This document shows, piece after piece, positions 25,178 to 53,602 of a stretch of 64,000 nucleotides of DNA. Every line of letters starts with the position of its first letter. Within the stretch, counting starts at the first letter, position 1. The DNA is taken from positions 113,838 through 177,837 of the IMG/VR virus record IMGVR_UViG_3300045974_000283. One strand, written 5' to 3'. The stretch comes from a virus. Position numbers and translations under genes: made by a program. Below the pieces are notes generated by a model, which saw only the letters and a list, made by a program, of their open reading frames with translations, made no database searches and had not been told where the DNA came from.

Positions 25178-26092
25178 ATGACCAAGAACGCACTGAAGAC
25201 CGTCGCTCAGCCGATCCCCTTCCCGCCCCACATGGAACAAGCGGCCTTCTGGATTCGGGAGCGGGAGAGCATCCGCCAGAAGAAGGACTCCGGCCTGCCG
25301 CCTCCGTGGACTCAAGATCCAATGATGGCGGGGACGAGATGGTGCAACGTGAGGCGGATGGACGATAAGGTCAGCAAGTGGCTTCTCGATCACTTCTACG
25401 TCAAGAACCTTCCGCCAGCTCAGATGGCCGTCGGCGCGGCACTGGCTCGCCTCATCAATCGTCCTGAGACACTCATCCGCATGTGTCCCTCAGGTTATCA
25501 AGGCTTCGACAACGCCCGGTTCCGCAAGGTGCTCCGAGCCATGAAGGCTGCGAAGGAGCAGATCTTCACCGGCGTCTACATCATCAACGGTGCGCAAGCC
25601 AACGGCCGCGACAAGTGGGAGCTCGTGCTCGACAACCTCGACGGGATGCGCCGCGCTCTCAAAGACAAGGACCTCGATCTGTCGTCCATGTCCGCAGTCC
25701 ACACAAAGCTGATGGAGACCAAGGGTCTGGGCTCTTTCTTGGCAGGTCAAGTCGTTGCTGACCTGCGACACGTTCTGCCTCAAGGTCAATGGCTCGACCG
25801 CAACACTTGGGCTCCCGTCGGTCCCGGTTCCACGAAGGGCCTCAACTACGTGTTCAACACACCCGGTGAGCGCACGACGCAAGCTCGCTTCAACGAGCTT
25901 CTCCCGATCTATGTCAAGGCGGTTAATAAGATGCCCGGCATCGCTGCCATCGCCCGCGAACGGAAGCTCGAAGCGCATGACTACCAAAATACGCTATGTG
26001 AAATTTCCAAGTGGGCGCGCCTGCGTGAAGGCGGACGTTCGAAGAACAAGTATCAAGCGAAGCCGCCCGGTGAACAGCTGACCCTTCTGTGA
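25178..26092 (+). CDS. aGPT-Pplase / 5-hmdU DNA kinase helical-domain family protein (thymine hypermodification)
   Basis: WIRERESI...PPPWTQDP....RWCNVRRMDDKVSKW; later GLGSFLAGQVVADL (HhH-like) and VGPGSTKGL, YQNTLCE. Clade assignment is from memory. Confidence 0.8.
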   Translation: MTKNALKTVAQPIPFPPHMEQAAFWIRERESIRQKKDSGLPPPWTQDPMMAGTRWCNVRRMDDKVSKWLLDHFYVKNLPPAQMAVGAALARLINRPETLIRMCPSGYQGFDNARFRKVLRAMKAAKEQIFTGVYIINGAQANGRDKWELVLDNLDGMRRALKDKDLDLSSMSAVHTKLMETKGLGSFLAGQVVADLRHVLPQGQWLDRNTWAPVGPGSTKGLNYVFNTPGERTTQARFNELLPIYVKAVNKMPGIAAIARERKLEAHDYQNTLCEISKWARLREGGRSKNKYQAKPPGEQLTLL

Positions 26093-26098
26093 GGCATC

Positions 26099-26950
26099 AT
26101 GAGTGAACTAGCCATCTACATCCCGAGTCGGAGCCGCTTCGAGAAGTCCCTTACCTTGAAATACTTGACTCCGAACTGGGACAAGGGACCGATCTATCTC
26201 GTGGTGCCCGCTGAGCAGCGCAAGGACTATCGGTTTCTCGCCAAACAATACGGCGTGACCATCCTGCCGTGCTCGGAGTCTGGCATCGCCTTGACGCGTC
26301 TGTTCTGCGGTGAACACGCCACGGACAAGTTCATCATGTTCGATGACGACCTCCGCTTCTCCTACCGACCCAAGCGGAACAAGGAGACGGGCATCGACCA
26401 GACGGGCAAGAACGCTCAAGGACTAAGGCTTTACAAGGCCGAAGGCAGCCAGATCACGCGAATGCTGACCATCGCTGAGACGCTGCTCGACAGATACGCT
26501 CACATCGGGGTCTCGCCTCGCGCGGGCAACCAATCGATGCCTCTGCCGATACGCGAGTGCGCTCGCCCGCTACGCGTCCTTGGCTACCGCAAGCGAGAGT
26601 TCCTCTCATGTGAACACGGCCGCGTCGCGATCATGGAAGATTTTGATGTCACACTTCAGTTGTTGACGCGTGGCTACAAGAACGCCTTGATCACGACGCA
26701 TGTGAACGATCAGCTCGCGACGAACACGGAAGGAGGCTGCTCCGATTATCGCACCGAGAAACTTCACAACACGAATGTCAAGAAGATGCACTCCCTGTGG
26801 GGAGTGCCGATCACCAAGATCGTCGAGAAGAAGAACGTCAGTGCAGCGGCCTTGGCAGCGGGTCTCGCCGCCCGCAAAGAGCTGAACATCCAATGGATCA
26901 AAGCCTGGAAATCCTCCGGCAAAGACCTCAAACCCAGACTATCACGGTGA
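26099..26950 (+). CDS. GT-A glycosyltransferase, TAGT/GREB1/J-glucosyltransferase-like
   Basis: IYIPSRSR, YLVVPAEQ, IMFDDD (DxD), EDFDVTLQLLTRG, GGCSDYRT. Confidence 0.8.
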   Translation: MSELAIYIPSRSRFEKSLTLKYLTPNWDKGPIYLVVPAEQRKDYRFLAKQYGVTILPCSESGIALTRLFCGEHATDKFIMFDDDLRFSYRPKRNKETGIDQTGKNAQGLRLYKAEGSQITRMLTIAETLLDRYAHIGVSPRAGNQSMPLPIRECARPLRVLGYRKREFLSCEHGRVAIMEDFDVTLQLLTRGYKNALITTHVNDQLATNTEGGCSDYRTEKLHNTNVKKMHSLWGVPITKIVEKKNVSAAALAAGLAARKELNIQWIKAWKSSGKDLKPRLSR

Positions 26951-26953
26951 CCC

Positions 26954-27940
26954 ATGGACATCTATCCTGTTGACCCTCCTTTCAGCCTTCAAGTCGAGCC
27001 CACTGAGGGCTGCTCGTTGGCTTGCTCATTCTGCGGCATCGCTTCTATCCGCGACAATGGAGCCAACGCCAACGAGGGCGTCCACGGCAAGAACTCCGCT
27101 CCCTACAAGCACATGGAGCGGGCCACCCTGATCCGACTGATGAAAGAAGTGAAGCGGCTCAAGTGGAATCCCCGCATCGAGTTCGCGATGCACGGTGAGC
27201 CTTCGATGCACCCTGACCTTCCTGGACTGGTCTCGGCGACCCGGAAGATTCTCGGCAATTCAGCTCACATCATGATCACCAGCAATGGCTCAGGTCTGAC
27301 CACGCCTGAGAAGATCAACGCGTTGATAGCGGCTGGCCCGAACACGCTGGCGCTGGACGACTACAAGCACGCCAAGTTCATGCCGAAGATCAAGGAGTTC
27401 GTGCGGACTCTTGGTCACACTGTGTTCGACTATCCGGCTGACAAGGAAGGCAACCCGCACCATCGCAACAAGGGCAGTCGCATCGTCCTGATCAACGACA
27501 TCAGTGAGAACACCGACGGCAACCATCAACTGACGAACCAAGGCGGAAGCTCGTTCGATGCTTTGACCGAGCCGCTCGTGCGTCGCTGCGCCAAGCCGTT
27601 CCGCGAGCTGTCTGTGCGCTGGGACGGCAATGTCGCCATCTGCTGTGACGATTGGGTCGGAGCCTACAAGATCGGCAACACGAACGAGCTGCCGCTCGAC
27701 GAAATCTGGCTGCACCCGCGTTTCGAGGCGGCTCGCCGTCGCCTGTACGCCAAGGACCGCGACTTCGGCCCGTGCAAGGGCTGCAACGTGAAGACCATGC
27801 GCGACGGCCTGCTCCCCGACAAGATGGGGAAGGGCGAGATGAAGGGCGTCTCTCCGGCCAGCGAGGCGCACCTGCGAGCGGCTCTGCGCGGTCGCATCTT
27901 CTCGATCAAGGAAGTCAAGGAAGTCAAGAGCGTCGCATGA
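26954..27940 (+). CDS. Radical SAM enzyme with SPASM/twitch domain
   Basis: CSLACSFC (CxxxCxxC), HGEPSMHP, ITSNG; C-terminal CAKPF..LSVRWDGNVAICCDDW...CKGC. Confidence 0.93.
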   Translation: MDIYPVDPPFSLQVEPTEGCSLACSFCGIASIRDNGANANEGVHGKNSAPYKHMERATLIRLMKEVKRLKWNPRIEFAMHGEPSMHPDLPGLVSATRKILGNSAHIMITSNGSGLTTPEKINALIAAGPNTLALDDYKHAKFMPKIKEFVRTLGHTVFDYPADKEGNPHHRNKGSRIVLINDISENTDGNHQLTNQGGSSFDALTEPLVRRCAKPFRELSVRWDGNVAICCDDWVGAYKIGNTNELPLDEIWLHPRFEAARRRLYAKDRDFGPCKGCNVKTMRDGLLPDKMGKGEMKGVSPASEAHLRAALRGRIFSIKEVKEVKSVA

Positions 27941-29157
27941 AAACAGTCCTCGTCCTCGACCTGCTCTACTACGATGTTCATCCGACCGTCCACAAGAACG
28001 GTGTCACGCCCACCGCTCTTGAGGAGGCCTCCGTTCTGGCAGCGCACGGGTATCGGGTGATCTTCGGGTGCGCTGGCTCCAACTTGAACCGGCTGAAGAA
28101 AGCGTATCCTGAGGTCGAGTTCGTCAACCTGTTCCCGCAGACCTATGCCAGCATGCTCGATGACGACAAGCACACGGTTGAGAGTTCTGGCTTCTCTCCG
28201 ACGGTGGCAGCTAAGATCAAAGAGATCGTCATCAACGAGAAGATCTGGGTCATCTCGTGCTCGTCGATGCGTCAGCTGCTCAAGCATCTGGAGAAAGTAG
28301 ACCTACCGTGCCCTGTCGTGTACACGATGCACTTCTGGCCTCAGCCAAATCTGATGTTCCACGCGAGCACGGTCGGTGGTCTGCTGGCGATCCGTGAGAA
28401 CCCCAAGTTCTACATCTGTGCCAACACCGAGTTCACGATGGAGCAGCACCTTGAGCAGTCGCGGCTTGCTCACGCGAAGGGCTTGATTCGTGGTTCCGCT
28501 CTCGCGGCCTACGATCGCTTTGAGGGCAACTACTCGGACAGCTTCTGGAGACGCATGACCTGTAGCGACTCGGTGCCGGACATCCCAGTCTGCAACGTAC
28601 CCTCCGGTCGCCTCATAGTTGCCAGTCGCACCCACAAGGCCAAGAACCCTGTCTTCTGCTCGGCAAGTCCCCTGATCGACTTCCACCTTCTGGTCTATGA
28701 GAACCCAGACAAGGACGCTCAAGCCATCCTGGACAAGATGGCGTCGGTGGGTGCCAGCGTGCAACGCAACACCCCTCAGGTCAAGCTCTACAAGCTGATG
28801 GCGCGCAGCTCAGGGGTCGTGGTCTCATGCACGTTCGAGACCTTCGCTCGTACATCTTTCGAAGCGGCCTGCTCGGGCGTCCCTAGTCTGGTGTTCGTGG
28901 ACAAGACAGGCAAACACGCCGTCCATTCCTGGAGCCAGCAAGCGGGCGTTCAGTTCGACTCGTTCCGTTTCGCCGACCTGAAAGACCGCAAGAACCGATT
29001 CAAGGCAGCGGTCGAGCATGTCGCCACAGGCTGGTCGTATGAGGAACGGCTGGAGCTCAAGCGGAGAGTTCGCAGCTACTTCAGCGCCAAGAACTTCGTG
29101 GCCGAGCGTACCTCTGCGTTCAAGGCGGCATGGTCCAAAATGAAAGCGTCCTCATGA
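27937..29157 (+). CDS. GT-B (GT4-like) glycosyltransferase
   Basis: N-terminal Rossmann strand MKTVLVLD; C-terminal ETFARTSFEAACSGVP (E-x7-E motif). Confidence 0.75.
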   Translation: MKTVLVLDLLYYDVHPTVHKNGVTPTALEEASVLAAHGYRVIFGCAGSNLNRLKKAYPEVEFVNLFPQTYASMLDDDKHTVESSGFSPTVAAKIKEIVINEKIWVISCSSMRQLLKHLEKVDLPCPVVYTMHFWPQPNLMFHASTVGGLLAIRENPKFYICANTEFTMEQHLEQSRLAHAKGLIRGSALAAYDRFEGNYSDSFWRRMTCSDSVPDIPVCNVPSGRLIVASRTHKAKNPVFCSASPLIDFHLLVYENPDKDAQAILDKMASVGASVQRNTPQVKLYKLMARSSGVVVSCTFETFARTSFEAACSGVPSLVFVDKTGKHAVHSWSQQAGVQFDSFRFADLKDRKNRFKAAVEHVATGWSYEERLELKRRVRSYFSAKNFVAERTSAFKAAWSKMKASS

Positions 29158-30170
29158 TCAACATCCTTCACTGTTCGCCGTGGCCCATAGGCGGCGCAAC
29201 GTCGTACACAGTTCACCTCGCATCTGTCTTCGAGAAGACAGGTGTCCCTCACCGGATCATCCGCTTGGCAAAGAAGACTGAGCGCAAGTCCCGTGAGATG
29301 GGTTCCTACGGGGTTTCTTATGTCAACACCTCCGTCGAGGACGCGGCCAAGCTGGACGGCAAGTTCCTGCTCGCATCAGCGCCAACGGATGAAGACATGG
29401 GGCTGGCCTGCGCCAAGCTAGTCGAGCGTTCCCGTGGTGCCTACGTCTTCCACGATCCCAACGAGTTCGGCATGTACCCTCATTGGGACGCCAGAAAGCG
29501 ATGGGGCTCTCGGTGCCGGGCAAGCGTCATCTGCATCCGCGAGCAGGGTCGTGTTCATATCCCCGAGGGCGTGTTCATTCCCCACCCATACGTCCGCACC
29601 TTCTCCAAGAAGACTCACAACGATGCCAAGACCAAGACGGCTGTCAGCGTCGCGCGGGTGAGCGGTGTCAAGAAAGCCCACTGGATCATCGAAGCGAACC
29701 AGACCCTACACGAAGCCGCCCGCGTTGACCTACGCGGAGAGGTCAATCGCATGTGGTGGAAGTTCACCATCGAGAAGAAGTTCCCCGGCATCCAACTGCC
29801 TGAGAACGCTGGCTTTCCCCGCATCATGGGTGCCGCTGCTGAGATCTGCAAACCCTATCAGCTGATGGTCGATCTGACCATCTTCAAAGAGGACGGCGGC
29901 GGAACTCAGTACGCGATGCTCGAAGCCATCGACGCGGGCGCTGTTCCCGTGATGACCAAGGAATGGTGCTCGTATCCGGGCAAGGCCAGTGACCTCGTGA
30001 TCCAGATCACCGACACGGATGGCCTGAAACGCCTCTTGAAGTCCTCACGGAAAGGCGTGCTCATGAGCGACATCGACGGCCTTCGCCAGTCGAACTACGA
30101 GTATCTCGATTCCGTCCACTCACCCAAAGCGGTCAGCCGCGCCTACGTCTCAGCCCTGGAGTCTGCATGA
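29154..30170 (+). CDS. GT-B glycosyltransferase
   Basis: GGATSY loop; VSVARVSGVKK; DLTIFKEDGGGTQYAMLEAIDAGAVPV (degenerate GT4 motif). Confidence 0.75.
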   Translation: MINILHCSPWPIGGATSYTVHLASVFEKTGVPHRIIRLAKKTERKSREMGSYGVSYVNTSVEDAAKLDGKFLLASAPTDEDMGLACAKLVERSRGAYVFHDPNEFGMYPHWDARKRWGSRCRASVICIREQGRVHIPEGVFIPHPYVRTFSKKTHNDAKTKTAVSVARVSGVKKAHWIIEANQTLHEAARVDLRGEVNRMWWKFTIEKKFPGIQLPENAGFPRIMGAAAEICKPYQLMVDLTIFKEDGGGTQYAMLEAIDAGAVPVMTKEWCSYPGKASDLVIQITDTDGLKRLLKSSRKGVLMSDIDGLRQSNYEYLDSVHSPKAVSRAYVSALESA

Positions 30171-30793
30171 AAGTTCTCGTCACGGGAAACCCCCGAAGTG
30201 GCACCCTGTCCCTCAGTCTGACGCTGCGCAAAGCCGGACTCGATGTCGGCCACGAGCGCATGGGCAAGGACGGTACGGTGTCGTGCTTCTTCTTCAAGCA
30301 AGTCGAATACTACCCCCGGGAAGGTGGAACCGAGAACCGTCACCTGACCGACGGCAAGGATGACAACTTCGATGAAGCCGAGTTCGACTTCGCTTACCAT
30401 CTGGTGCGCAATCCGCTCAAGTGCATCCCATCTATGCAGAAGATCGTCAACCGTCGCCACCGACAGTGGATACGGGACATCGGCATCTGCGAGTGGGACC
30501 CCAAGAACCAGTCGAACATAGAGTGGTGCGCCTTGGCGTGGTATCACACGAATCTGTACATCGAGCAGAACCTGAACTTCCCTCGGCTGCGGGTGGAGAC
30601 CCTCTTGAAAGACTGGCCCAATGAACTGTGCCCGCGTCCAACCGAGATCAAACACTCGCACAAGAGCTCGGGCTTTCGCAAAGCTGCACCGATCACTCCG
30701 GCTCAGCTCACGGATATATCGGGAGCGGCCCTTTCCAAATCCATCCTCGACATGGCGCGCCGCTACGGCTACGCCAAGTCCGACCTTCAGTAG
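30167..30793 (+). CDS. Sulfotransferase-fold P-loop protein
   Basis: VTGNPRSGT (5'-PSB loop), VGHE, HLVRNPLKCIPS (3'-PB R-x-P-x5-S), LRVETL. Confidence 0.75.
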   Translation: MKVLVTGNPRSGTLSLSLTLRKAGLDVGHERMGKDGTVSCFFFKQVEYYPREGGTENRHLTDGKDDNFDEAEFDFAYHLVRNPLKCIPSMQKIVNRRHRQWIRDIGICEWDPKNQSNIEWCALAWYHTNLYIEQNLNFPRLRVETLLKDWPNELCPRPTEIKHSHKSSGFRKAAPITPAQLTDISGAALSKSILDMARRYGYAKSDLQ

Positions 30794-32420: not shown

Positions 32421-33620
32421 ATGAACAAACCGACCCCGGTCACCGATCTCAACGGCGCGATCACGCTCGCAGCCACAAGCCCGGACAGCCATCTGTTCCG
32501 GCTGCTCTACCTTCTCCAGTCCGAACAGTATCACGGCGTCGTGGCCCAGACCGAGAGCCGCAACGGCCCCGTCCTGCGCTTCACGGTGCCTGTCATCACT
32601 TCGTGGATTTGCCCCGATCAGCGCGTGAGCTTCTGGGACAAGCGCGATGCCAATCCATTCTTCCACTACATGGAAGCGATCTGGATGTTGGCGGGCCGCG
32701 ACGACGTTGCCTTCCCGTCCTACTTTGCCAAGCAGATCAAGCAATTCTCCGACGACGGTGAGACCTTGAACGGTGCCTACGGCTATCGCTGGCGCAACTT
32801 CTTCGACAACGGCAACTTCGATCAACTCGAAGACGCCATCGCTCAGCTCAAGGCGAATCCCTCGTCGCGTCGCGTCATCCTGCAGATGTGGCACGCGGTC
32901 GCTGATCCGCAGAGCGCCGCTGAGGGCTCGAAGGACGTCCCCTGCAATATCTCGGTGATGTTCGATGCCGTCAACGGCAAGCTGAACATGACCGTCGTCT
33001 GCCGCTCCAACGACATCATCTGGGGTGCCACGGGCGCGAACGTGGTCCACTTCTCGATTCTGCACGAGTACGTCTCGGCGGCTGCGGGCCTGCGCGCTGG
33101 CACCTATCATCAGGTGAGCAACAACCTTCACGTCTACACCGAGTTCCCGGTCTCGAAGCCGCTGCTGGAAGCCACGGACGATCCGACACCGGAAGAACTG
33201 CGCGGTGACTATCCGGGCGAGGCGCTCGACCTGTACGCGGCGCGTGAGAACGGTCTTTTCCCGATGCCGCTGTTCCGTTCGAACGAAGTGGTCGATGCCG
33301 ACGAGTTCGATGATGTCCTGCTGGATACAGACTTCCTGGACGCGATTCGGGAAGAGTTCGACGAGGATAGTGTTTCGCGTCAGCAGAACATCCAAGCGTA
33401 CATTGACGCCTTGAAGGAAATGGCGATTACCGGAGCTGGATGGCGGCAACACGCCAACGTGATGCAGGCTGCTTTCATCATGCACCGCGAGCTTGGTCAA
33501 ACCTCTGAGGCCATCGAGTACCTCAAGGAAGCCAACATCGGCCCCGACTGGAAGCTCGCATGTGTCAACTGGCTCCAACGCCGTCTGGACGCCGCCAAGG
33601 CAAAGGAGATCGCAGCATGA
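32421..33620 (+). CDS. Thymidylate-synthase-family dUMP hydroxymethylase (5hmdUMP synthase)
   Basis: ESRNG, DANPFFHYMEAIWMLAG, GAYGYRWR, SRRVILQMW, DVPCN (catalytic Cys), RSNDIIWGATGANVVHFS, NNLHVY. Confidence 0.82.
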   Translation: MNKPTPVTDLNGAITLAATSPDSHLFRLLYLLQSEQYHGVVAQTESRNGPVLRFTVPVITSWICPDQRVSFWDKRDANPFFHYMEAIWMLAGRDDVAFPSYFAKQIKQFSDDGETLNGAYGYRWRNFFDNGNFDQLEDAIAQLKANPSSRRVILQMWHAVADPQSAAEGSKDVPCNISVMFDAVNGKLNMTVVCRSNDIIWGATGANVVHFSILHEYVSAAAGLRAGTYHQVSNNLHVYTEFPVSKPLLEATDDPTPEELRGDYPGEALDLYAARENGLFPMPLFRSNEVVDADEFDDVLLDTDFLDAIREEFDEDSVSRQQNIQAYIDALKEMAITGAGWRQHANVMQAAFIMHRELGQTSEAIEYLKEANIGPDWKLACVNWLQRRLDAAKAKEIAA

Positions 33621-34312
33621 AAGACCGCTTGATTGGCTTGGGTCTCCCGCACGACCCCGAGTTCGCCGCTCGGGTTCAGTCATTCACGGCTGTCCACGCT
33701 CATGTTCGTGGCTGCGCGACCAAGCGCTACCACACTGAGCCCACGCTGCAGAACGAGACGGTCGGCGCTCACGTCGGCTTCATGGTCGGTGCGGCCTTCA
33801 TCATCTACGACACGCCTTCGCTGGCGCTACTCAAGGCCATCAGCCTGCACGATCACATGGAAGCCATCACTGGCGACATGCCCGCGCCGATGAAGGTCCG
33901 GAGGCCCGAGCTGAAAGCCATCATCGACGAACTGGAGATGGAGTTCCACGGCGAGTCGAAGCTGCCCGGCTGGCCCATGCTTGACGCGCACGAAGAACGG
34001 CAACTGAAGGTCTTGGACCGCCTGTCAGGAGTCGCCTGCGCCTCGCAAGAACTTCGCATGGGCAACTGGAGCGTCCACCACGTTCTGGGTGCCTTCTGCG
34101 GTTACTTCGCGACGCTGAAGCCCGAATGGAAGGAGCTCTACTTCTTCGAGGGTCTTCTGGACACCGCACCGAATCGCAACCGGGCTGTCCCCGACGACAC
34201 AAAGCGTCTGTTCGAGGCGATGGTCAAGAGCGTCCGTGAGGCGGCGTCTCCCAAATACCGCACGAACCCCAAGCCGGACGGCATGTCTTCCCTCGGTCCA
34301 ATCGCGAGCTGA
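33617..34312 (+). CDS. HD-domain 5'-deoxynucleotidase (YfbR/DatZ-like)
   Basis: KRYH..., ETVGAH, SLHDHMEAITGDMP, LKVLDRLS. Confidence 0.85.
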   Translation: MKDRLIGLGLPHDPEFAARVQSFTAVHAHVRGCATKRYHTEPTLQNETVGAHVGFMVGAAFIIYDTPSLALLKAISLHDHMEAITGDMPAPMKVRRPELKAIIDELEMEFHGESKLPGWPMLDAHEERQLKVLDRLSGVACASQELRMGNWSVHHVLGAFCGYFATLKPEWKELYFFEGLLDTAPNRNRAVPDDTKRLFEAMVKSVREAASPKYRTNPKPDGMSSLGPIAS

Positions 34313-36320: not shown

Positions 36321-36986
36321 ATGTCCACCAAGAAAACCAAGGCTCCGGCCAAGGCTGCACCCGCCCCGGCGTCCAAGCCTGTTCTCAAGAACGCACCGAA
36401 GCCCGCTGCGAAAACTGCCGCTCCGGCCGCGAAGCCTGCTCCCGGGGCGAAACCCAAGAAGGTCAATCCTGCTGAGCTGAAGGTCGCCGCCAAGGAACTT
36501 GGTCTGGTGAAGAAAGCCCTCAAGGGTGCAATCGCTGCAACGCCGAAGCCGCCCAAGACGTCCAGACCCTTAAAGCCGATTCTGATCGTTCCGATCTTCC
36601 CGGCTGTCACTGGCCTAGGAATCCTGAAGGTCACGGAAGTCGCCGGTGAGTTCAACAACCGGCTCGAACTTCTGCTGCGCTCCCTGCCGCTGCAACTGGC
36701 CGTCCACTACCGTCAGCGCGCGACGCCGTTCATCGGCTCCGACATGCAGAAGCCCATGACCGGTGTCTACATCGGTTTCCTGGCAAGTCAATCAATTCCC
36801 GCACCCGCTTTCGTCTACTACTCCAGCCAACTCGACCGCTGGTCCTACTTCCACGACACCTGGGACGGTATGCTTTCGGCCATGAACGGCGGCAACGATG
36901 CCCCTGGCCTGCGCCCCGCAAGCAAGAAGGCGATCCCCGATATCTTCTACTGGTCTGGGTTCAACCACGACCCGATGGAAGTCTGA
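36321..36986 (+). CDS. Histone H1-like K/A/P-rich N-terminus fused to a small globular domain
   Basis: First about 80 aa are PAK/AAK repeats. Confidence 0.65.
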   Translation: MSTKKTKAPAKAAPAPASKPVLKNAPKPAAKTAAPAAKPAPGAKPKKVNPAELKVAAKELGLVKKALKGAIAATPKPPKTSRPLKPILIVPIFPAVTGLGILKVTEVAGEFNNRLELLLRSLPLQLAVHYRQRATPFIGSDMQKPMTGVYIGFLASQSIPAPAFVYYSSQLDRWSYFHDTWDGMLSAMNGGNDAPGLRPASKKAIPDIFYWSGFNHDPMEV

Positions 36987-37011
36987 ACTTCACACCCACC
37001 AAGGAACACCC

Positions 37012-37932
37012 ATGCAAGCTCCACTCCCACTGAAAGAGCTCTACGAAGCTCAGGTCGCGCTCAACGCCAAGACCCTCCCGGCCTTCCTGCCCTGCGGCGC
37101 GGCAAAGAAAGTCTTCATCGATGCGCGTGACCAATCTATCCGCCTCCCGGTAGACTTCAAGCAAGCCATGCAGCGCGAGCTCGATGAGCTGGCCGTCGTG
37201 CTGCCCTTCGGCCACTGGAAGGATACCGCCAAGCAGATGCGCGCCATCAGCTTCAACGACTTCCAAAATCTCCTCCTGGAACTGGTGGACATTTTCCACT
37301 TCCTGATGAGCGAGAACTTGGTCGAAGTGGCTTCGGTCTGCAACGACGGTCAACCTGATCTTGACGTGATCGTCAAGCACTCGGTGGCTCGCCACACAGA
37401 GGCCCTCCTGTTCCTGGCACCCCGTGACCCGTCGATCACGACCTTCGCAGACGTCTGGCACAAGGTGAACGAGAACGGCCAGATGAACATCGGCGACTTC
37501 TGCACACTCGCCAACCTGAACACTGAGGTGAGCAGTTTCAGCGCTCGGCTGGCCCCCGGTGCCACGCTCGAATCGGAGCGCGTGATCTACAACTTCCACA
37601 CCCTCCTGAGCATGTTCGGCTTCTCGAACGATGACCTGCTCACGGTCTATCGCGGCAAGGGCGTTCTCAACGAGTTCCGCCAGTGCAACGGCTACCGCGA
37701 CGGCAGCTACATCAAGCAATGGAAGGGCGCTGGAACTTCCACCATCGAGGACAACGTGGTGATGCTCGGCATGATCAGCCGGAGCATTCCGGCCTTCCTG
37801 CCCGATGGTGTCGAGCCCTACGACTTCTCACCCGGCGAACTGTTCATGATGTTGGACGCCGAGTACAAGGCGATGAAGGCTGTCCTGGAGTCGAAGAGCC
37901 GCACCTTCAAAACTTCAGACGCCCACTCTTGA
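37012..37932 (+). CDS. dut: Dimeric all-alpha dUTPase (dUTPase_2 family; possibly dTTP/dCTP active)
   Basis: AMQRELDEL...WK, ELVDIFHF, YRGKGVLNEFRQCNGYRDGSYIKQW..EDN match Campylobacter-type dimeric dUTPase motifs. Confidence 0.85.
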   Translation: MQAPLPLKELYEAQVALNAKTLPAFLPCGAAKKVFIDARDQSIRLPVDFKQAMQRELDELAVVLPFGHWKDTAKQMRAISFNDFQNLLLELVDIFHFLMSENLVEVASVCNDGQPDLDVIVKHSVARHTEALLFLAPRDPSITTFADVWHKVNENGQMNIGDFCTLANLNTEVSSFSARLAPGATLESERVIYNFHTLLSMFGFSNDDLLTVYRGKGVLNEFRQCNGYRDGSYIKQWKGAGTSTIEDNVVMLGMISRSIPAFLPDGVEPYDFSPGELFMMLDAEYKAMKAVLESKSRTFKTSDAHS

Positions 37933-47809: not shown

Positions 47810-48090
47810 ATGACAAGCCTCAGTTCGGCATCTTGCTCGTTGGTCTCGCGGCTCTGGTCGGGTTCCTAGTTCTGGTGGCCCCGCGAATGGAAGCTCCGAT
47901 TGCAGATCATGGCAACCCGGAATATCTGGCCGAGAGAGCGAGAGGCATGGCCGCAATCGCAGCGGCGCGCGATGCCGAAATCGAGGAGCAATGCGCTACG
48001 AACCGACGCAGCCGCCGAAGCTGTCACTACTTCTACACGCAGAAGGAGTTCCAGCAAACCCACAAACGGCAACTCGGAATATCACCGTGA
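47806..48090 (+). CDS. Small membrane-anchored protein
   Basis: GTGA overlap; N-terminal TM (FGILLVGLAALVGFLVLVA). Confidence 0.55.
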   Translation: MNDKPQFGILLVGLAALVGFLVLVAPRMEAPIADHGNPEYLAERARGMAAIAAARDAEIEEQCATNRRSRRSCHYFYTQKEFQQTHKRQLGISP

Positions 48091-50573
48091 AAATCCCTCA
48101 GCTCGAAGACCAGTTCGATCAGCTTCGCGAGATGAAATCGTTGAGTACGCTCAACGTCGCCGAAGGCTACGAGATCAACCCGCGTGTCCACCCGTTCTGG
48201 GGCAAGGCCAAGCGCAAGATGTTGTTCGTGTTGGAGAGCGTAGACGGTTCTGATATCAAGGCCGGGCGGTTGTTCGCGTCGCGCCTCGTGGGTCGCAACA
48301 ACGACTTCGAGGTCAACCGCATGATCGCCACCATGCGGAACACGCTGAAGCAGTCGTGGCATCTTTATCAAGAGTACCTCGAGCTCAACTCGCTGACGGA
48401 CGAATCAGCAGACCCCGACTTCGTGATCGGCTTCGTCAACTTCAACGCCACGAAGTACTTCCACCTAGTTGGCACACCGCGCCAGAATGCCCTCGCCAAA
48501 TGCGCCGAGCGTGTCCGCGCTGTCATTGCTGAGCTGGAACCCACAGACGTCGTCATCTTCGGCGACACGGCCACGCAGATGCTGGTCAAGGACCCGATGC
48601 CTACCGTGCTCCCGTGGAAGCGCGGATGGGTTCTTGAAACACAGATCGGTGACCACGCCTGCCGCGTCATCCCTACCCTGGACATCGAGCCGCTCTACAA
48701 TCAGTCTGGCGCGGATGCTGGCGATGACGGGGACGATGACGCTTCCGGCCCGGCTGACTTGCTCTACTTCGTCTGCCGCAACCTCTGCCACGCCTACGCA
48801 CAGAAGCACCTGCACTCGCTCGCTCACATCAAGCCCAAGGTAATCTTCGTCGACACGATGGAGAAGTTCCAGGCTCTGTACGACAAGCTGATGTCCACGC
48901 CTATGGACTTTCCGATCGGATGGGACTTGGAGACCGCCTCGCTGGAGGCGTACAAGAACGCCATCTACACGGTCCAGATCGCCTTCAGCACGACTCAGGG
49001 TTACATGATCCCGCTGCGGCACAAGGACACGCCGTTCGACGAGGAAGAACTCCAGTACATCGAGTCCTGCCTGCGGTACTTCATGTCCCGGCGCAAGCGC
49101 TCGGAACGACGCATCCTGGTCGGTGCCAACTTCCAGTTCGACATGAAGGTGATGCGCGGTCAGTGGAACATCCCGGTCATATACCACTACGTCTGGGACG
49201 TCGCGGCTGGCGAAATTCTGATTGACGAGAACATAGCGCTGTTCGACCGTATCAAGTTCCGTGTTCTGCACGAGAACGTCAAGGTCACCCTCGGCAACCT
49301 GAGGGCTCTGGCTACTCACTACGGCAACGACCTCTATTGGCGTATCGCCTTCTCGAAAGGTGAGCGGCACACGTTCGGCAGCATCAACGTGTGCGAGGAC
49401 AAGAACGCTCAGTTCTACGGCATCTTCGACGCGGTCATTGTGCTCGGCATCCGCCAGCAACAGATTGCCAAGGCTACGAAGATTCGCCTGTCGCCGAAGC
49501 AGACCTACGAGGGATACTATCAGCGCCACGTTGCCCGGCAGATGTCCAACACCTGCCACGCTACATCGTCGATGCATCAGCACGGCTCGCACGTTGAACT
49601 GAAGTTCATGGCGCATCTGGCAAGCAAGGACTCGCCGATCCTCACAGTGATGCGCGACACCGAGCGCGAGCTTATGGCGTCGCCCCTCGTGGAACAGGCT
49701 AACGACCGTCTGTGCAAGGCTGAGGGAGTTCGGGCTACGGGTCTCTTCAAGCAGAAGATCAACCTCTTCTCACTCAGCAAGGGCGACGGCCTGGAGCAAC
49801 TCTTCTTCGGTGTCATGGGTTTGAAGCCTATCGCCATCAGCGACAAGACGGGCAAGCCATCCATCGACAAAGTGTTCCTTGCCGAGTATGCTCCTCTCTA
49901 CCCAGAGGTAGGTCTAGCGCAGCAATGGCGCATCGCCCAGAAGCTGGTCAGTACCTACGTCAAGGGATGGGCCATCAAAGCGCAGAAGGCTGGCGACTCC
50001 TTTGCTGACCACTGCCTACGGGCGAGTTTCAGCTTCATGATCGTCACGGGGCGGCTCAACTCGTTCGATCCCAACCTTCAGCAAGCTCCGTCACGAGGCA
50101 AGCTGGCGAAGCTCATCAAGGAAGCGTTCCGTGCTCGCAAGGGTCGCTTCAACTTCGCGTGGGACTTCAACGCATCCGAAGTCCGGTGGGCGGCTTGTTT
50201 GTCCGGCGACACCATCCTGCGCGACGCGTTCCTTGCCGGGTTAATGCTGAGGCGGCAGCTCATCAAGGAAACTGATCCCGAGAAGCGCAAGGCCATCATC
50301 AAGCTGATCAAGACCGAAGGCGACATCCACGTTCGTAGCGTGTTTGCGTTCTTCGGCATCTGGGTTGACAAGGACCATCCGCTGCGCGCCGCTGTCAAGG
50401 CGGTCGTGTTCGGCGTCCTGTACGGCAAGGCCGCTGCCACGCTTTCCAAGAACCTGATGGGCGAAGCCCGCTATCGCCACCGCGACATCATCCTCGCGGC
50501 TAAGAAACGCGTCAAAGCCATCCAAGCGCAGATCAAAGCGCTCACCGTCACGAAAGAAGCCGAGGAAGTATGA
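48087..50573 (+). CDS. polA: DNA polymerase family A, N-terminal part (UDG-like domain + 3'-5' exonuclease + motifs A and B)
   Basis: ExoI WDLET, ExoII GANFQFD, ExoIII YGIFD; GRLNSFDPNLQQ; motif A WDFNASEVR; motif B RAAVKAVVFGVLYG (Phe at the 762-equivalent); no motif C. GTG start inferred (track start 47991). Confidence 0.93.
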   Translation: MKIPQLEDQFDQLREMKSLSTLNVAEGYEINPRVHPFWGKAKRKMLFVLESVDGSDIKAGRLFASRLVGRNNDFEVNRMIATMRNTLKQSWHLYQEYLELNSLTDESADPDFVIGFVNFNATKYFHLVGTPRQNALAKCAERVRAVIAELEPTDVVIFGDTATQMLVKDPMPTVLPWKRGWVLETQIGDHACRVIPTLDIEPLYNQSGADAGDDGDDDASGPADLLYFVCRNLCHAYAQKHLHSLAHIKPKVIFVDTMEKFQALYDKLMSTPMDFPIGWDLETASLEAYKNAIYTVQIAFSTTQGYMIPLRHKDTPFDEEELQYIESCLRYFMSRRKRSERRILVGANFQFDMKVMRGQWNIPVIYHYVWDVAAGEILIDENIALFDRIKFRVLHENVKVTLGNLRALATHYGNDLYWRIAFSKGERHTFGSINVCEDKNAQFYGIFDAVIVLGIRQQQIAKATKIRLSPKQTYEGYYQRHVARQMSNTCHATSSMHQHGSHVELKFMAHLASKDSPILTVMRDTERELMASPLVEQANDRLCKAEGVRATGLFKQKINLFSLSKGDGLEQLFFGVMGLKPIAISDKTGKPSIDKVFLAEYAPLYPEVGLAQQWRIAQKLVSTYVKGWAIKAQKAGDSFADHCLRASFSFMIVTGRLNSFDPNLQQAPSRGKLAKLIKEAFRARKGRFNFAWDFNASEVRWAACLSGDTILRDAFLAGLMLRRQLIKETDPEKRKAIIKLIKTEGDIHVRSVFAFFGIWVDKDHPLRAAVKAVVFGVLYGKAAATLSKNLMGEARYRHRDIILAAKKRVKAIQAQIKALTVTKEAEEV

Positions 50574-52693: not shown

Positions 52694-53602
52694 ATGTCAG
52701 ACACCAAATCCAAACCTATCGCACCTGCACCGACGCGTGAATCCCTGACCAAGGAATTGGCCGCGGCTCACGCCGCACTCACCAAGGCCCTAGCCGATCA
52801 GCAAGAGGAGATGGTCACCTCCAAGATTCCCTACGAATCCCAACGCGATCCCAGCGGATGGCTCGGATTCTCATCCGAGGTCTACGACAAGTTTTTCGCG
52901 GGGTATCCTGGCGTATCCGCCCGAATCGACCTCTACAAGGAACAGATACGCGAACGCCTCTGGGTTATCTCACCTATCGGCCAGCGTCGTACCATGTACC
53001 GAATCCTGACGGGCGACCCGTCATTCATCGCGGGCGCTGAACGCCGTGCGGTCAACTCGCCGATTCAGGGTATCAGCTCGCAGGTAGGCATCACCGCCGG
53101 ATACCTGATTCAGATCGAGGTCTACGAATACTGCCTAGCCCGCAAGATTCCCGTCGAGTACACCACGATGTTCGTTCGTGCGGTTCACGACGCATCCTAC
53201 TTCGAGGAATCCTACCGCCTGATCATCCCTGCCATACACATCAATCAGCACGTTGCCACCGTCGGCGTCCATGAATACTACAAGAAGGAATTCAACTACG
53301 AGTTCCTGCTCGATCCTGAGATCGAGATGGAAGTGGGCGCGTCGGATGCCCGCGCTGATTCGTGGAATTGGGTTCTGGACGATCTGCCACCTCTGCTCAT
53401 CAAGGCGCTCGACGACCGCATCAAGGACGGATACGTCAAGGCCGAGCACCGTGCCAAGGCGCTGGAGGTCATCTTCAAGCCGTGGGTCAACAAGGCAGAA
53501 CGCCAGTATCTCCAGCGCAAGTATCCTCTGCTCCAGGTATCCGATCTGGAAGAGGAAATCTGCCTCGCCCTCGAACGCAACAACATCACACCGGAAAGGT
53601 AG
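52694..53602 (+). CDS. polA: DNA polymerase family A, C-terminal part (rest of fingers/palm, motif C)
   Basis: DKFFAGYPGV, SPIGQRR, AERRAVNSPIQG, motif C VRAVHDASYFE, PEIEMEVG. Confidence 0.92.
   Translation: MSDTKSKPIAPAPTRESLTKELAAAHAALTKALADQQEEMVTSKIPYESQRDPSGWLGFSSEVYDKFFAGYPGVSARIDLYKEQIRERLWVISPIGQRRTMYRILTGDPSFIAGAERRAVNSPIQGISSQVGITAGYLIQIEVYEYCLARKIPVEYTTMFVRAVHDASYFEESYRLIIPAIHINQHVATVGVHEYYKKEFNYEFLLDPEIEMEVGASDARADSWNWVLDDLPPLLIKALDDRIKDGYVKAEHRAKALEVIFKPWVNKAERQYLQRKYPLLQVSDLEEEICLALERNNITPER

Follow-up and report, generated by a model that had tools for sequence, protein, structure and literature searches.

What a sulfotransferase-like gene might do within a viral DNA-modification operon is the question raised by protein P0001 (208 aa), which is encoded on the plus strand at positions 30167-30793 of the DNA stretch analysed here. 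This stretch, referred to as the window, comprises 64,000 nucleotides and forms the final 64 kb (positions 113,838 to 177,837) of IMG/VR virus contig IMGVR_UViG_3300045974_000283, which is 177,837 bp long and estimated to be 74% complete. All evidence in this work is computational. It makes it very probable that P0001 is a real sulfotransferase of the type that uses 3'-phosphoadenosine-5'-phosphosulfate (PAPS) and that it belongs to a DNA-modification pathway. For the more specific proposal that P0001 is a PAPS-dependent tailoring enzyme which sulfates the sugar on glycosylated 5-hydroxymethyluracil (5hmU) DNA, we consider the chances to be about even.

The original prediction had proposed a sulfotransferase fold on account of two PAPS-binding sequences. 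The open reading frame (ORF) 30167-30793 and both sequences were confirmed, with VTGNPRSGT at residues 5-13 and LVRNPLKCIPS at residues 79-89. The 5'-phosphosulfate loop, P[KR]SGT[TS] following strand 1, is represented by GNPRSGT (residues 7-13), and the 3'-phosphate motif, an Arg and a Ser at a strand-helix junction, is represented by LVRNPLKCIPS, which aligned to HLVRHPYAVIES of structure 4gox. P0001 has 22 homologues in metagenomes, with identities ranging from 97% to 30%. Residues H29, E30, G36, S39, R81, P83, I87, S89 and E144 are invariant across 23 close homologues. H29, E30, G36, R81 and P83 are also invariant across 77 diverse relatives, in which R10, S11, G12, T13, S39, I87, S89, W125, E144 and Y202 are conserved to at least 90%. 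As the motif residues are conserved in both sets, the PAPS motifs are not a product of chance. The pair H29-E30 lies 20 residues past R10 and is replaced by H-Q in one subfamily, that of locus L009 (see below). It is a candidate catalytic base and presumably the counterpart of the catalytic Glu of the sulfotransferases TPST and CurM.

The P0001 sequence alone gave no significant match in Pfam or PHROGs. Within the family, 19 of 23 members matched Pfam Sulfotransfer_3 (PF13469) at E ≤ 1 (best E 1e-7), and 16 of 23 touched Sulfotransfer_4. A profile search of 1.84 billion cluster representatives retrieved 3,264 relatives at E ≤ 1e-3, of which 131 reached E ≤ 1e-30, and in the ESM Atlas P0001 falls among viral clusters automatically named 'sulfotransferase family'. 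When PDB sequences were searched by phmmer with P0001 or with the first family profile, no sulfotransferase was matched. The matches of a 77-sequence profile to PDB sequences were not statistically significant, yet they aligned exactly on both conserved motifs. These fall on SPRSGST and HLVRHPYAVIES of the olefin-synthase/CurM sulfotransferases (4gox/4gbm), whose PAPS-binding motifs under the two family motifs read ILSSPRSGSTLLRVML and IHLVRHPYAVIES. The same profile also aligned onto the 5'-phosphosulfate loop of TPST (E ~1). Membership of P0001 in the TPST family itself was rejected, given that only this loop aligns, that structural identity amounts to 14-16% and that the gene stands in a DNA-modification context. 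Two relatives show unusual architectures: P0071 contains the sulfotransferase-like domain twice in tandem, and in P0141 this domain is joined with a GT2 glycosyltransferase and with TPR repeats. Neither the operon (megablast) nor P0001 (tblastn) had a match in 50,697 sequenced genomes of cultured phages.

Sulfotransferases and nucleoside monophosphate (NMP) kinases have a common fold. An AlphaFold2 model of P0001, computed with the family alignment (pLDDT 92, pTM 0.89), was compared with 48,161 PDB representatives using VIA-align. Ranks 1 to 8 were all occupied by sulfotransferases (Z 10.0-7.9), namely TPST1 (10.0; 167 residues), an olefin-synthase sulfotransferase (9.8), TPST2 (9.5), tick TPST (9.4), Cpz8 (8.7), a schistosome sulfotransferase (8.4), Stf9 (8.0) and NDST (7.9). 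They aligned over 147-169 residues and spanned P0001 from residue 1 to residue ~170-208. P-loop kinases (dephospho-CoA, shikimate and guanylate kinase) scored Z ≤ 7.8 with ~110 aligned residues (best 112), and their alignments ended near residue 157. The GNPRSGT loop has no Walker-A lysine. Assignment of P0001 to the 5-hydroxymethyldeoxyuridine (5-hmdU) DNA kinases (PF18748 HMUDK_HMUD1 or PF18751) was rejected, as GxxxxGK[ST] is absent and alignment (hhalign) of the P0001 family with the genuine kinase of an M6-like phage (SN1/M6-type) gave a probability of 0.3%. Judged by sequence and model, P0001 belongs to the sulfotransferase fold class as a short and divergent representative, in which the residues that PAPS users typically employ for nucleotide binding are retained.

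A further indication of the donor came from a related locus. P0001 homologues were examined at 13 sulfotransferase loci, comprising the window and 12 further independent loci (designated L005, L006 and so on). In L005, a 127-aa adenosine-5'-phosphosulfate (APS) kinase gene lies directly upstream of the P0001 homologue and overlaps it. The encoded protein matches PF01583 at E 2.7e-12 (47 bits against a cut-off of 21) and contains a Walker A and a DGD..R motif. APS kinase makes PAPS. Because its presence next to the sulfotransferase-like gene would otherwise be hard to explain, the neighbour in L005 probably uses PAPS. Short APS-kinase-like proteins of 112-160 aa are encoded at L005:2031-2414, L021:6001-6393, L022:6001-6390 and L023:6001-6369. 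The relatives of the L005 enzyme occur on other phage contigs in glycan or nonulosonic-acid clusters, often beside sulfotransferase-like genes and glycosyltransferases; in L021 the neighbours are a canonical Sulfotransfer_1/3 protein and a small nucleotidyltransferase. Such mini APS kinases imply a phage-driven supply of PAPS.

In the window, the P0001 gene is the last of a block of six genes on the plus strand (25178-30793), upstream of which stands a 5'-3' exonuclease gene. The block starts with a helical protein of aGPT-Pplase clade 1 (Pfam HMUDK_hel; 25178-26092), followed by a GT-A glycosyltransferase of the TET/JBP-associated glycosyltransferase (TAGT) family (26099-26950), which is likely to be the first sugar transferase acting on 5hmU. 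Next come a radical SAM enzyme with a SPASM domain (26954-27940), a type of enzyme found in four of the 13 loci, and a probable GT-B glycosyltransferase (GT4-like, 406 aa; 27937-29157). The gene of the latter is ATGA-coupled to the radical SAM gene; the evidence for its assignment is weak, and it has no homologue in the other sulfotransferase loci. The second GT-B (29154-30170) resembles T4 DNA alpha-glucosyltransferase: its Atlas features agree to 0.99 with clusters of the T4 alpha-glucosyltransferase family, and its structure matches GT4 enzymes with a TM score of ~0.8. Its gene is ATGA-coupled to the preceding gene and, as had been noted from the sequence, likewise to that of P0001, the ATG of which (30167-30169) overlaps the TGA of the upstream ORF (30168-30170). 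All six proteins have calculated isoelectric points of 8.9-9.95, and are thus basic as expected of enzymes acting on DNA. Downstream on the same strand follow a thymidylate-synthase-family protein, presumed to be the dUMP hydroxymethylase that supplies 5hmdU (32421-33620; start 32421 inferred, ORF open from 32292), and an HD/YfbR-like deoxynucleotidase (33617-34312) whose gene is ATGA-coupled to it.

All 13 loci are thymidine-hypermodification clusters, and the 12 further ones are located among replication genes of phage contigs. Ten of these 12 resemble the window in that they encode the helical protein, the sulfotransferase-like protein, the hydroxymethylase and usually the HD protein, and lack a kinase. 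L007 is located on a 76.6-kb genome (G003) rated 100% complete, in which neither a PF18748 or PF18751 gene nor a small Walker-A ORF was found. The remaining two loci, L006 and L009, are without the helical protein. They encode a P-loop kinase (Ploopntkinase3-type), an amino-acid:DNA transferase and GATase/amidoligase proteins, and their sulfotransferase-like proteins form a subfamily with H-Q instead of H-E. The L009 protein and the related fusion proteins P0099, P0144 and P0109 carry an extra N-terminal domain of ~240 aa. A hidden Markov model search did not match the N-terminal domain of these 446-460-aa fusion proteins to the helical Pplase1 domain, and this assignment was discarded. The fusion gene of L009 (L009:9284-10624) is placed between the ADDT gene and the P-loop kinase gene, after which a 729-aa fusion of radical SAM and TAGT is encoded (L009:11451-13640).

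The most consistent companions of the sulfotransferase-like genes were genes for glycosyltransferases of the DNA type (TAGT, T4 alpha-glucosyltransferase-like or T4 beta-glucosyltransferase-like). Such genes were present in 11 of the 13 loci, mostly adjoining or overlapping the sulfotransferase gene. TAGT was found in nine loci and is fused to the radical SAM domain in L009. An alpha-glucosyltransferase-like GT-B is encoded in seven of 13 loci with a sulfotransferase compared to none of 79 without (Fisher p = 2e-7, a value that overstates independence in view of the shared ancestry of the loci and the two separate procedures by which they were collected). A protein of ~312 aa without Pfam match in L010 (9079-10017), L070 (11612-12544) and L013 (6106-7002) was modelled with a pLDDT of 85 and matched T4 beta-glucosyltransferase (Foldseek E 7e-9, TM 0.65). 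Members of this family are also encoded in L038, L057, L058, L085 and L102, and the family gene frequently stands immediately upstream of that for the helical protein. L005, which is cut by the contig end, encodes a PIG-L family sugar N-deacetylase.

It had further been predicted that a recognisable P-loop 5hmdU kinase is missing. This holds for the whole contig, in which there is no PF18748 or PF18751 gene, a Walker-A scan found no small kinase-like ORF and phmmer with three kinases found nothing; the complete related genome G003 has neither such a kinase gene nor a small Walker-A ORF. The helical protein at 25178-26092 was rejected as a kinase despite its Pfam name, as it lacks Walker A and is homologous to the aGPT-Pplase clade-1 protein of M6-like phages. 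In those phages the true kinase is a separate PF18748 protein of 187 aa adjoining the helical protein. The helical family has an invariant Cys in the motif (E/Q)(H/N)(S/T/C)LCE..K (residues 270-278 in the window protein, which has Q-N where most relatives have E-H). Judged by inspection alone, this (E/Q)xxLC motif appears to resemble the catalytic and metal-binding ETxxC of Pplase2/ADDT, the residue roles of which have been described (PMC13458397). An hhalign comparison of the helical family with a single Pplase2 sequence (SN1) gave nothing.

If P0001 were the replacement of the kinase, every kinase-less locus with a helical protein should carry a sulfotransferase-like gene. The 80 best IMG/VR loci encoding the helical protein (L024-L103) were therefore classified by iterated profile searches. 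A P-loop kinase is encoded in 34 loci (22 of these also encode ADDT) and TAGT in 27, and none of the 80 loci has both. A sulfotransferase-like gene was found in a single locus, and 18 loci contain none of the three. All 27 loci with TAGT have neither a kinase nor a sulfotransferase. The helical protein thus occurs in two arms, a phosphate/amino-acid arm and a glycosylating arm, which are mutually exclusive in these loci, and this suggests that it is the common base-handling component of two alternative routes of thymidine modification. As the glycosylating arm usually runs without a kinase and without a sulfotransferase, the latter is an add-on rather than an obligatory activator, and the idea that P0001 takes the place of the kinase beside the helical protein was weakened.

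These data bear on three alternatives to sulfation of a DNA-linked sugar. The shared fold, the occurrence of kinases in the fold lists at Z 6-7.8, the frequent position of the sulfotransferase-like gene beside the dUMP hydroxymethylase gene (L005, L010) and the want of a phage kinase on the contig could be accommodated if P0001 were a divergent P-loop-fold phosphotransferase, either substituting for the 5hmU DNA kinase or phosphorylating 5hm-dUMP in the nucleotide pool. This is very unlikely: the loop is without the Walker-A lysine, the R81/P83/S89 3'-phosphate motif, which is absent from kinases, is invariant or nearly so, kinase alignments are limited to residues 1-157 whereas sulfotransferases alone match over the full length, and an APS kinase adjoins one relative. 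The kinase option of the original prediction is consequently disfavoured. A second option given there, sulfate as a leaving group, is unlikely as well. Here P0001 would stand in for the missing 5-hmdU DNA kinase by making 5-sulfooxymethyl-U, and the aGPT-Pplase1/HMUDK_hel protein would catalyse the displacement. In an equally improbable wider version, sulfate would be placed on the 5-hydroxymethyl group of 5hmU or on a sugar hydroxyl, to be displaced or eliminated by aGPT-Pplase1 or by the radical SAM-SPASM enzyme. If it held, activation by sulfate would allow thymidine to be hypermodified without a kinase, as a counterpart to the phosphate route of M6 and ViI. It is favoured by the missing kinase in the contig and in G003, by the position of the kinase next to the same helical protein in M6-like phages, and by the nearest motif matches, which include the 'activating' olefin-synthase and CurM sulfotransferases that install a sulfate leaving group. 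The invariant Cys of the helical protein, reminiscent of the catalytic ETxxC of Pplase2 (PMC13458397), points the same way. Yet the 27 surveyed loci with TAGT but without a kinase or a P0001-type enzyme show that the helical protein needs no sulfotransferase, and the strongest partner of the sulfotransferase is a GT-B glycosyltransferase, not the helical protein. In addition, the sulfotransferase gene of L006 and L009 is accompanied by genes for a genuine P-loop kinase and for an amino-acid:DNA transferase. TAGT-type enzymes such as the base J glucosyltransferase require free rather than activated 5hmU, which likewise counts against activation by sulfate.

Another possibility, which we regard as doubtful, is that P0001 is a genuine sulfotransferase with a different acceptor, be it a nucleotide-sugar donor, a non-sugar part of the adduct (e.g. 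an amino-acid side chain) or a protein. Protein-tyrosine sulfotransferases are the closest structural neighbours, the L006/L009 subfamily resides in clusters of the amino-acid type with amidoligase/GATase genes, and no glycosyltransferase is detectable in L006. On the other hand, the P0001 gene lies inside a DNA-modification operon, and in most loci the sulfotransferase-like gene is translationally coupled to DNA-type glycosyltransferases. L009 does have the radical-SAM-TAGT fusion, and the proteins of L006 and L009 form a subfamily of their own, marked by H-Q for H-E and by the extra N-terminal domain. Taken together, the GT-B partnership, the 80-locus survey and the two loci with a real kinase make sulfation of the glycan, once installed, more likely than that of 5hmU. 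Of the original proposals, the sulfotransferase fold, the PAPS motifs, the 5hmU operon and the lack of a kinase were thus borne out, and sulfation of the DNA-linked sugar is the option that fits best, although at no better than an even chance.

Several observations weigh against sulfation of a DNA-linked sugar, in addition to the relatedness of the loci compared above. P0001 on its own stays below the Pfam cut-off (PF17784, E 0.032; PF13469, E 0.093). Structural comparison, put forward with the original prediction as a means of telling sulfotransferase from kinase, did so in the exhaustive search, where sulfotransferases ranked at the top and aligned over the full length; Foldseek against the PDB returned a mixture of sulfotransferases and kinases with E values of only ~0.1. 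L006 shows no detectable glycosyltransferase or other sugar-related gene, and L005 ends at the contig edge. Finally, genes for APS kinase, ATP sulfurylase and CysD-type proteins are all absent from the 177,837-bp contig, which extends to its full length what had been noted for the window, and a supply of PAPS by the host of the phage has to be assumed.

Starting from the fold and motifs of P0001, its conserved neighbourhood and its association with glycosyltransferases, we infer the following course for sulfation of a DNA-linked sugar, including its donor, its acceptor, the order of steps and the benefit to the phage. The thymidylate-synthase homologue would make 5-hydroxymethyl-dUMP, and 5hmU would be incorporated into phage DNA. 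After replication, the TAGT-type GT-A and one or two T4-related GT-B enzymes would attach one or more sugars to the 5-hydroxymethyl group. PAPS made by the host would then provide the sulfate that P0001 transfers to a hydroxyl (or amine) on the DNA-linked sugar, with R10, S11, G12 and T13 holding the 5'-phosphosulfate, R81 and S89 holding the 3'-phosphate and H29-E30 serving as putative base. The predicted product, sulfo-glycosyl-5hmU, would be bulkier and more negatively charged than glycosyl-hmU and should help the DNA to evade nucleases and glycosylases whose targets are plain or glycosylated bases.

The window comes from a large, uncultured phage. The G+C content of the window is ~59%, and nearly every gene is located on the plus strand. 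The DNA polymerase of the contig is nearest (~35% identity) to those of jumbo phages of Achromobacter, Burkholderia and Ralstonia. The family-A DNA polymerase is seemingly split into two ORFs ~2 kb apart (47991-50573 and 52694-53602), the first of which covers the exonuclease and the initial part of the polymerase domain and the second profile positions 238-317. Small ORFs and a local dip in G+C to 0.537 are found in between, and an inserted mobile element or a split gene may account for this arrangement. A dUTPase_2-family protein is encoded at 36898-37932.

Compared with the TPST, CurM and olefin-synthase sulfotransferases (5wri, 3ap3, 4gox, 4gbm), P0001 shares the fold over its whole length (Z 9.5-10), the arginine-type loop PRSGT/S, the 3'-phosphate motif VRxPxxxIxS and, presumably, an acidic/His residue ~20 positions past the loop. 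It differs in that it has 14-19% identity to these enzymes, is ~70-100 residues shorter and is encoded in a phage DNA-modification operon, and in that the acceptor predicted for it is a DNA-borne sugar, whereas those enzymes act on a peptide tyrosine or a polyketide beta-hydroxyl. With the pathways of T-even glucosyl-hmC, of SP-15, YerA41 and Carin-5, and of base J, the window system has in common that a hydroxymethyl pyrimidine is made at the nucleotide level and, as proposed here, sugar is transferred after replication. The predicted sugar-transfer enzymes (TAGT-type, alpha-glucosyltransferase-like and beta-glucosyltransferase-like) are likewise common to glycosylating pyrimidine hypermodification. 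SP-15, YerA41 and Carin-5 contain thymidine modifications of the glycan type, in which the anionic groups are phosphate and glucuronate or uronic acid (PMC12686479). Unlike the present system, none of these phage or base J pathways was found to have a reported sulfotransferase or sulfate ester.

Characterised thymidine hypermodification runs via 5-HMUDK and amino-acid or diamine transferases (PMC5889632, PMC8989533, PMC13458397). The window resembles the 5-HMUDK/ADDT pathway of M6, ViI, PaMx11 and PhiW-14 in its dUMP hydroxymethylase, HD nucleotidase and aGPT-Pplase clade-1 helical protein, and the M6 cluster also holds a P-loop-fold enzyme of ~190 aa. In contrast to that pathway, the window encodes neither a P-loop kinase nor ADDT, and P0001 has neither Walker A nor sequence similarity to 5-HMUDK. 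Full-text searches of the literature gave no report that connects a sulfotransferase with 5-hydroxymethyluracil or hypermodified phage DNA, and none of a sulfate ester as a natural modification of DNA. Neither sulfation nor sulfotransferases are mentioned in the key papers on DNA glycosylation.

In outline, the system would follow a known scheme, in which a hydroxymethyl pyrimidine is glycosylated after replication; new would be the enzyme class and, as predicted, the chemical group that the DNA carries. Recombinant enzymes, 5hmU DNA and PAPS would allow a direct test of the proposal, and a DNA-directed sulfotransferase could serve as a labelling tool. The absence of the family from 50,697 cultured phages may explain why it went unnoticed in spite of its abundance in metagenomes. 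If the proposal is correct, the toolbox of thymidine hypermodification gains an enzyme class, and phage DNA gains a strongly anionic, sugar-borne functional group, which would represent a new type of shield for studies on restriction, DNA glycosylase defence and CRISPR evasion.

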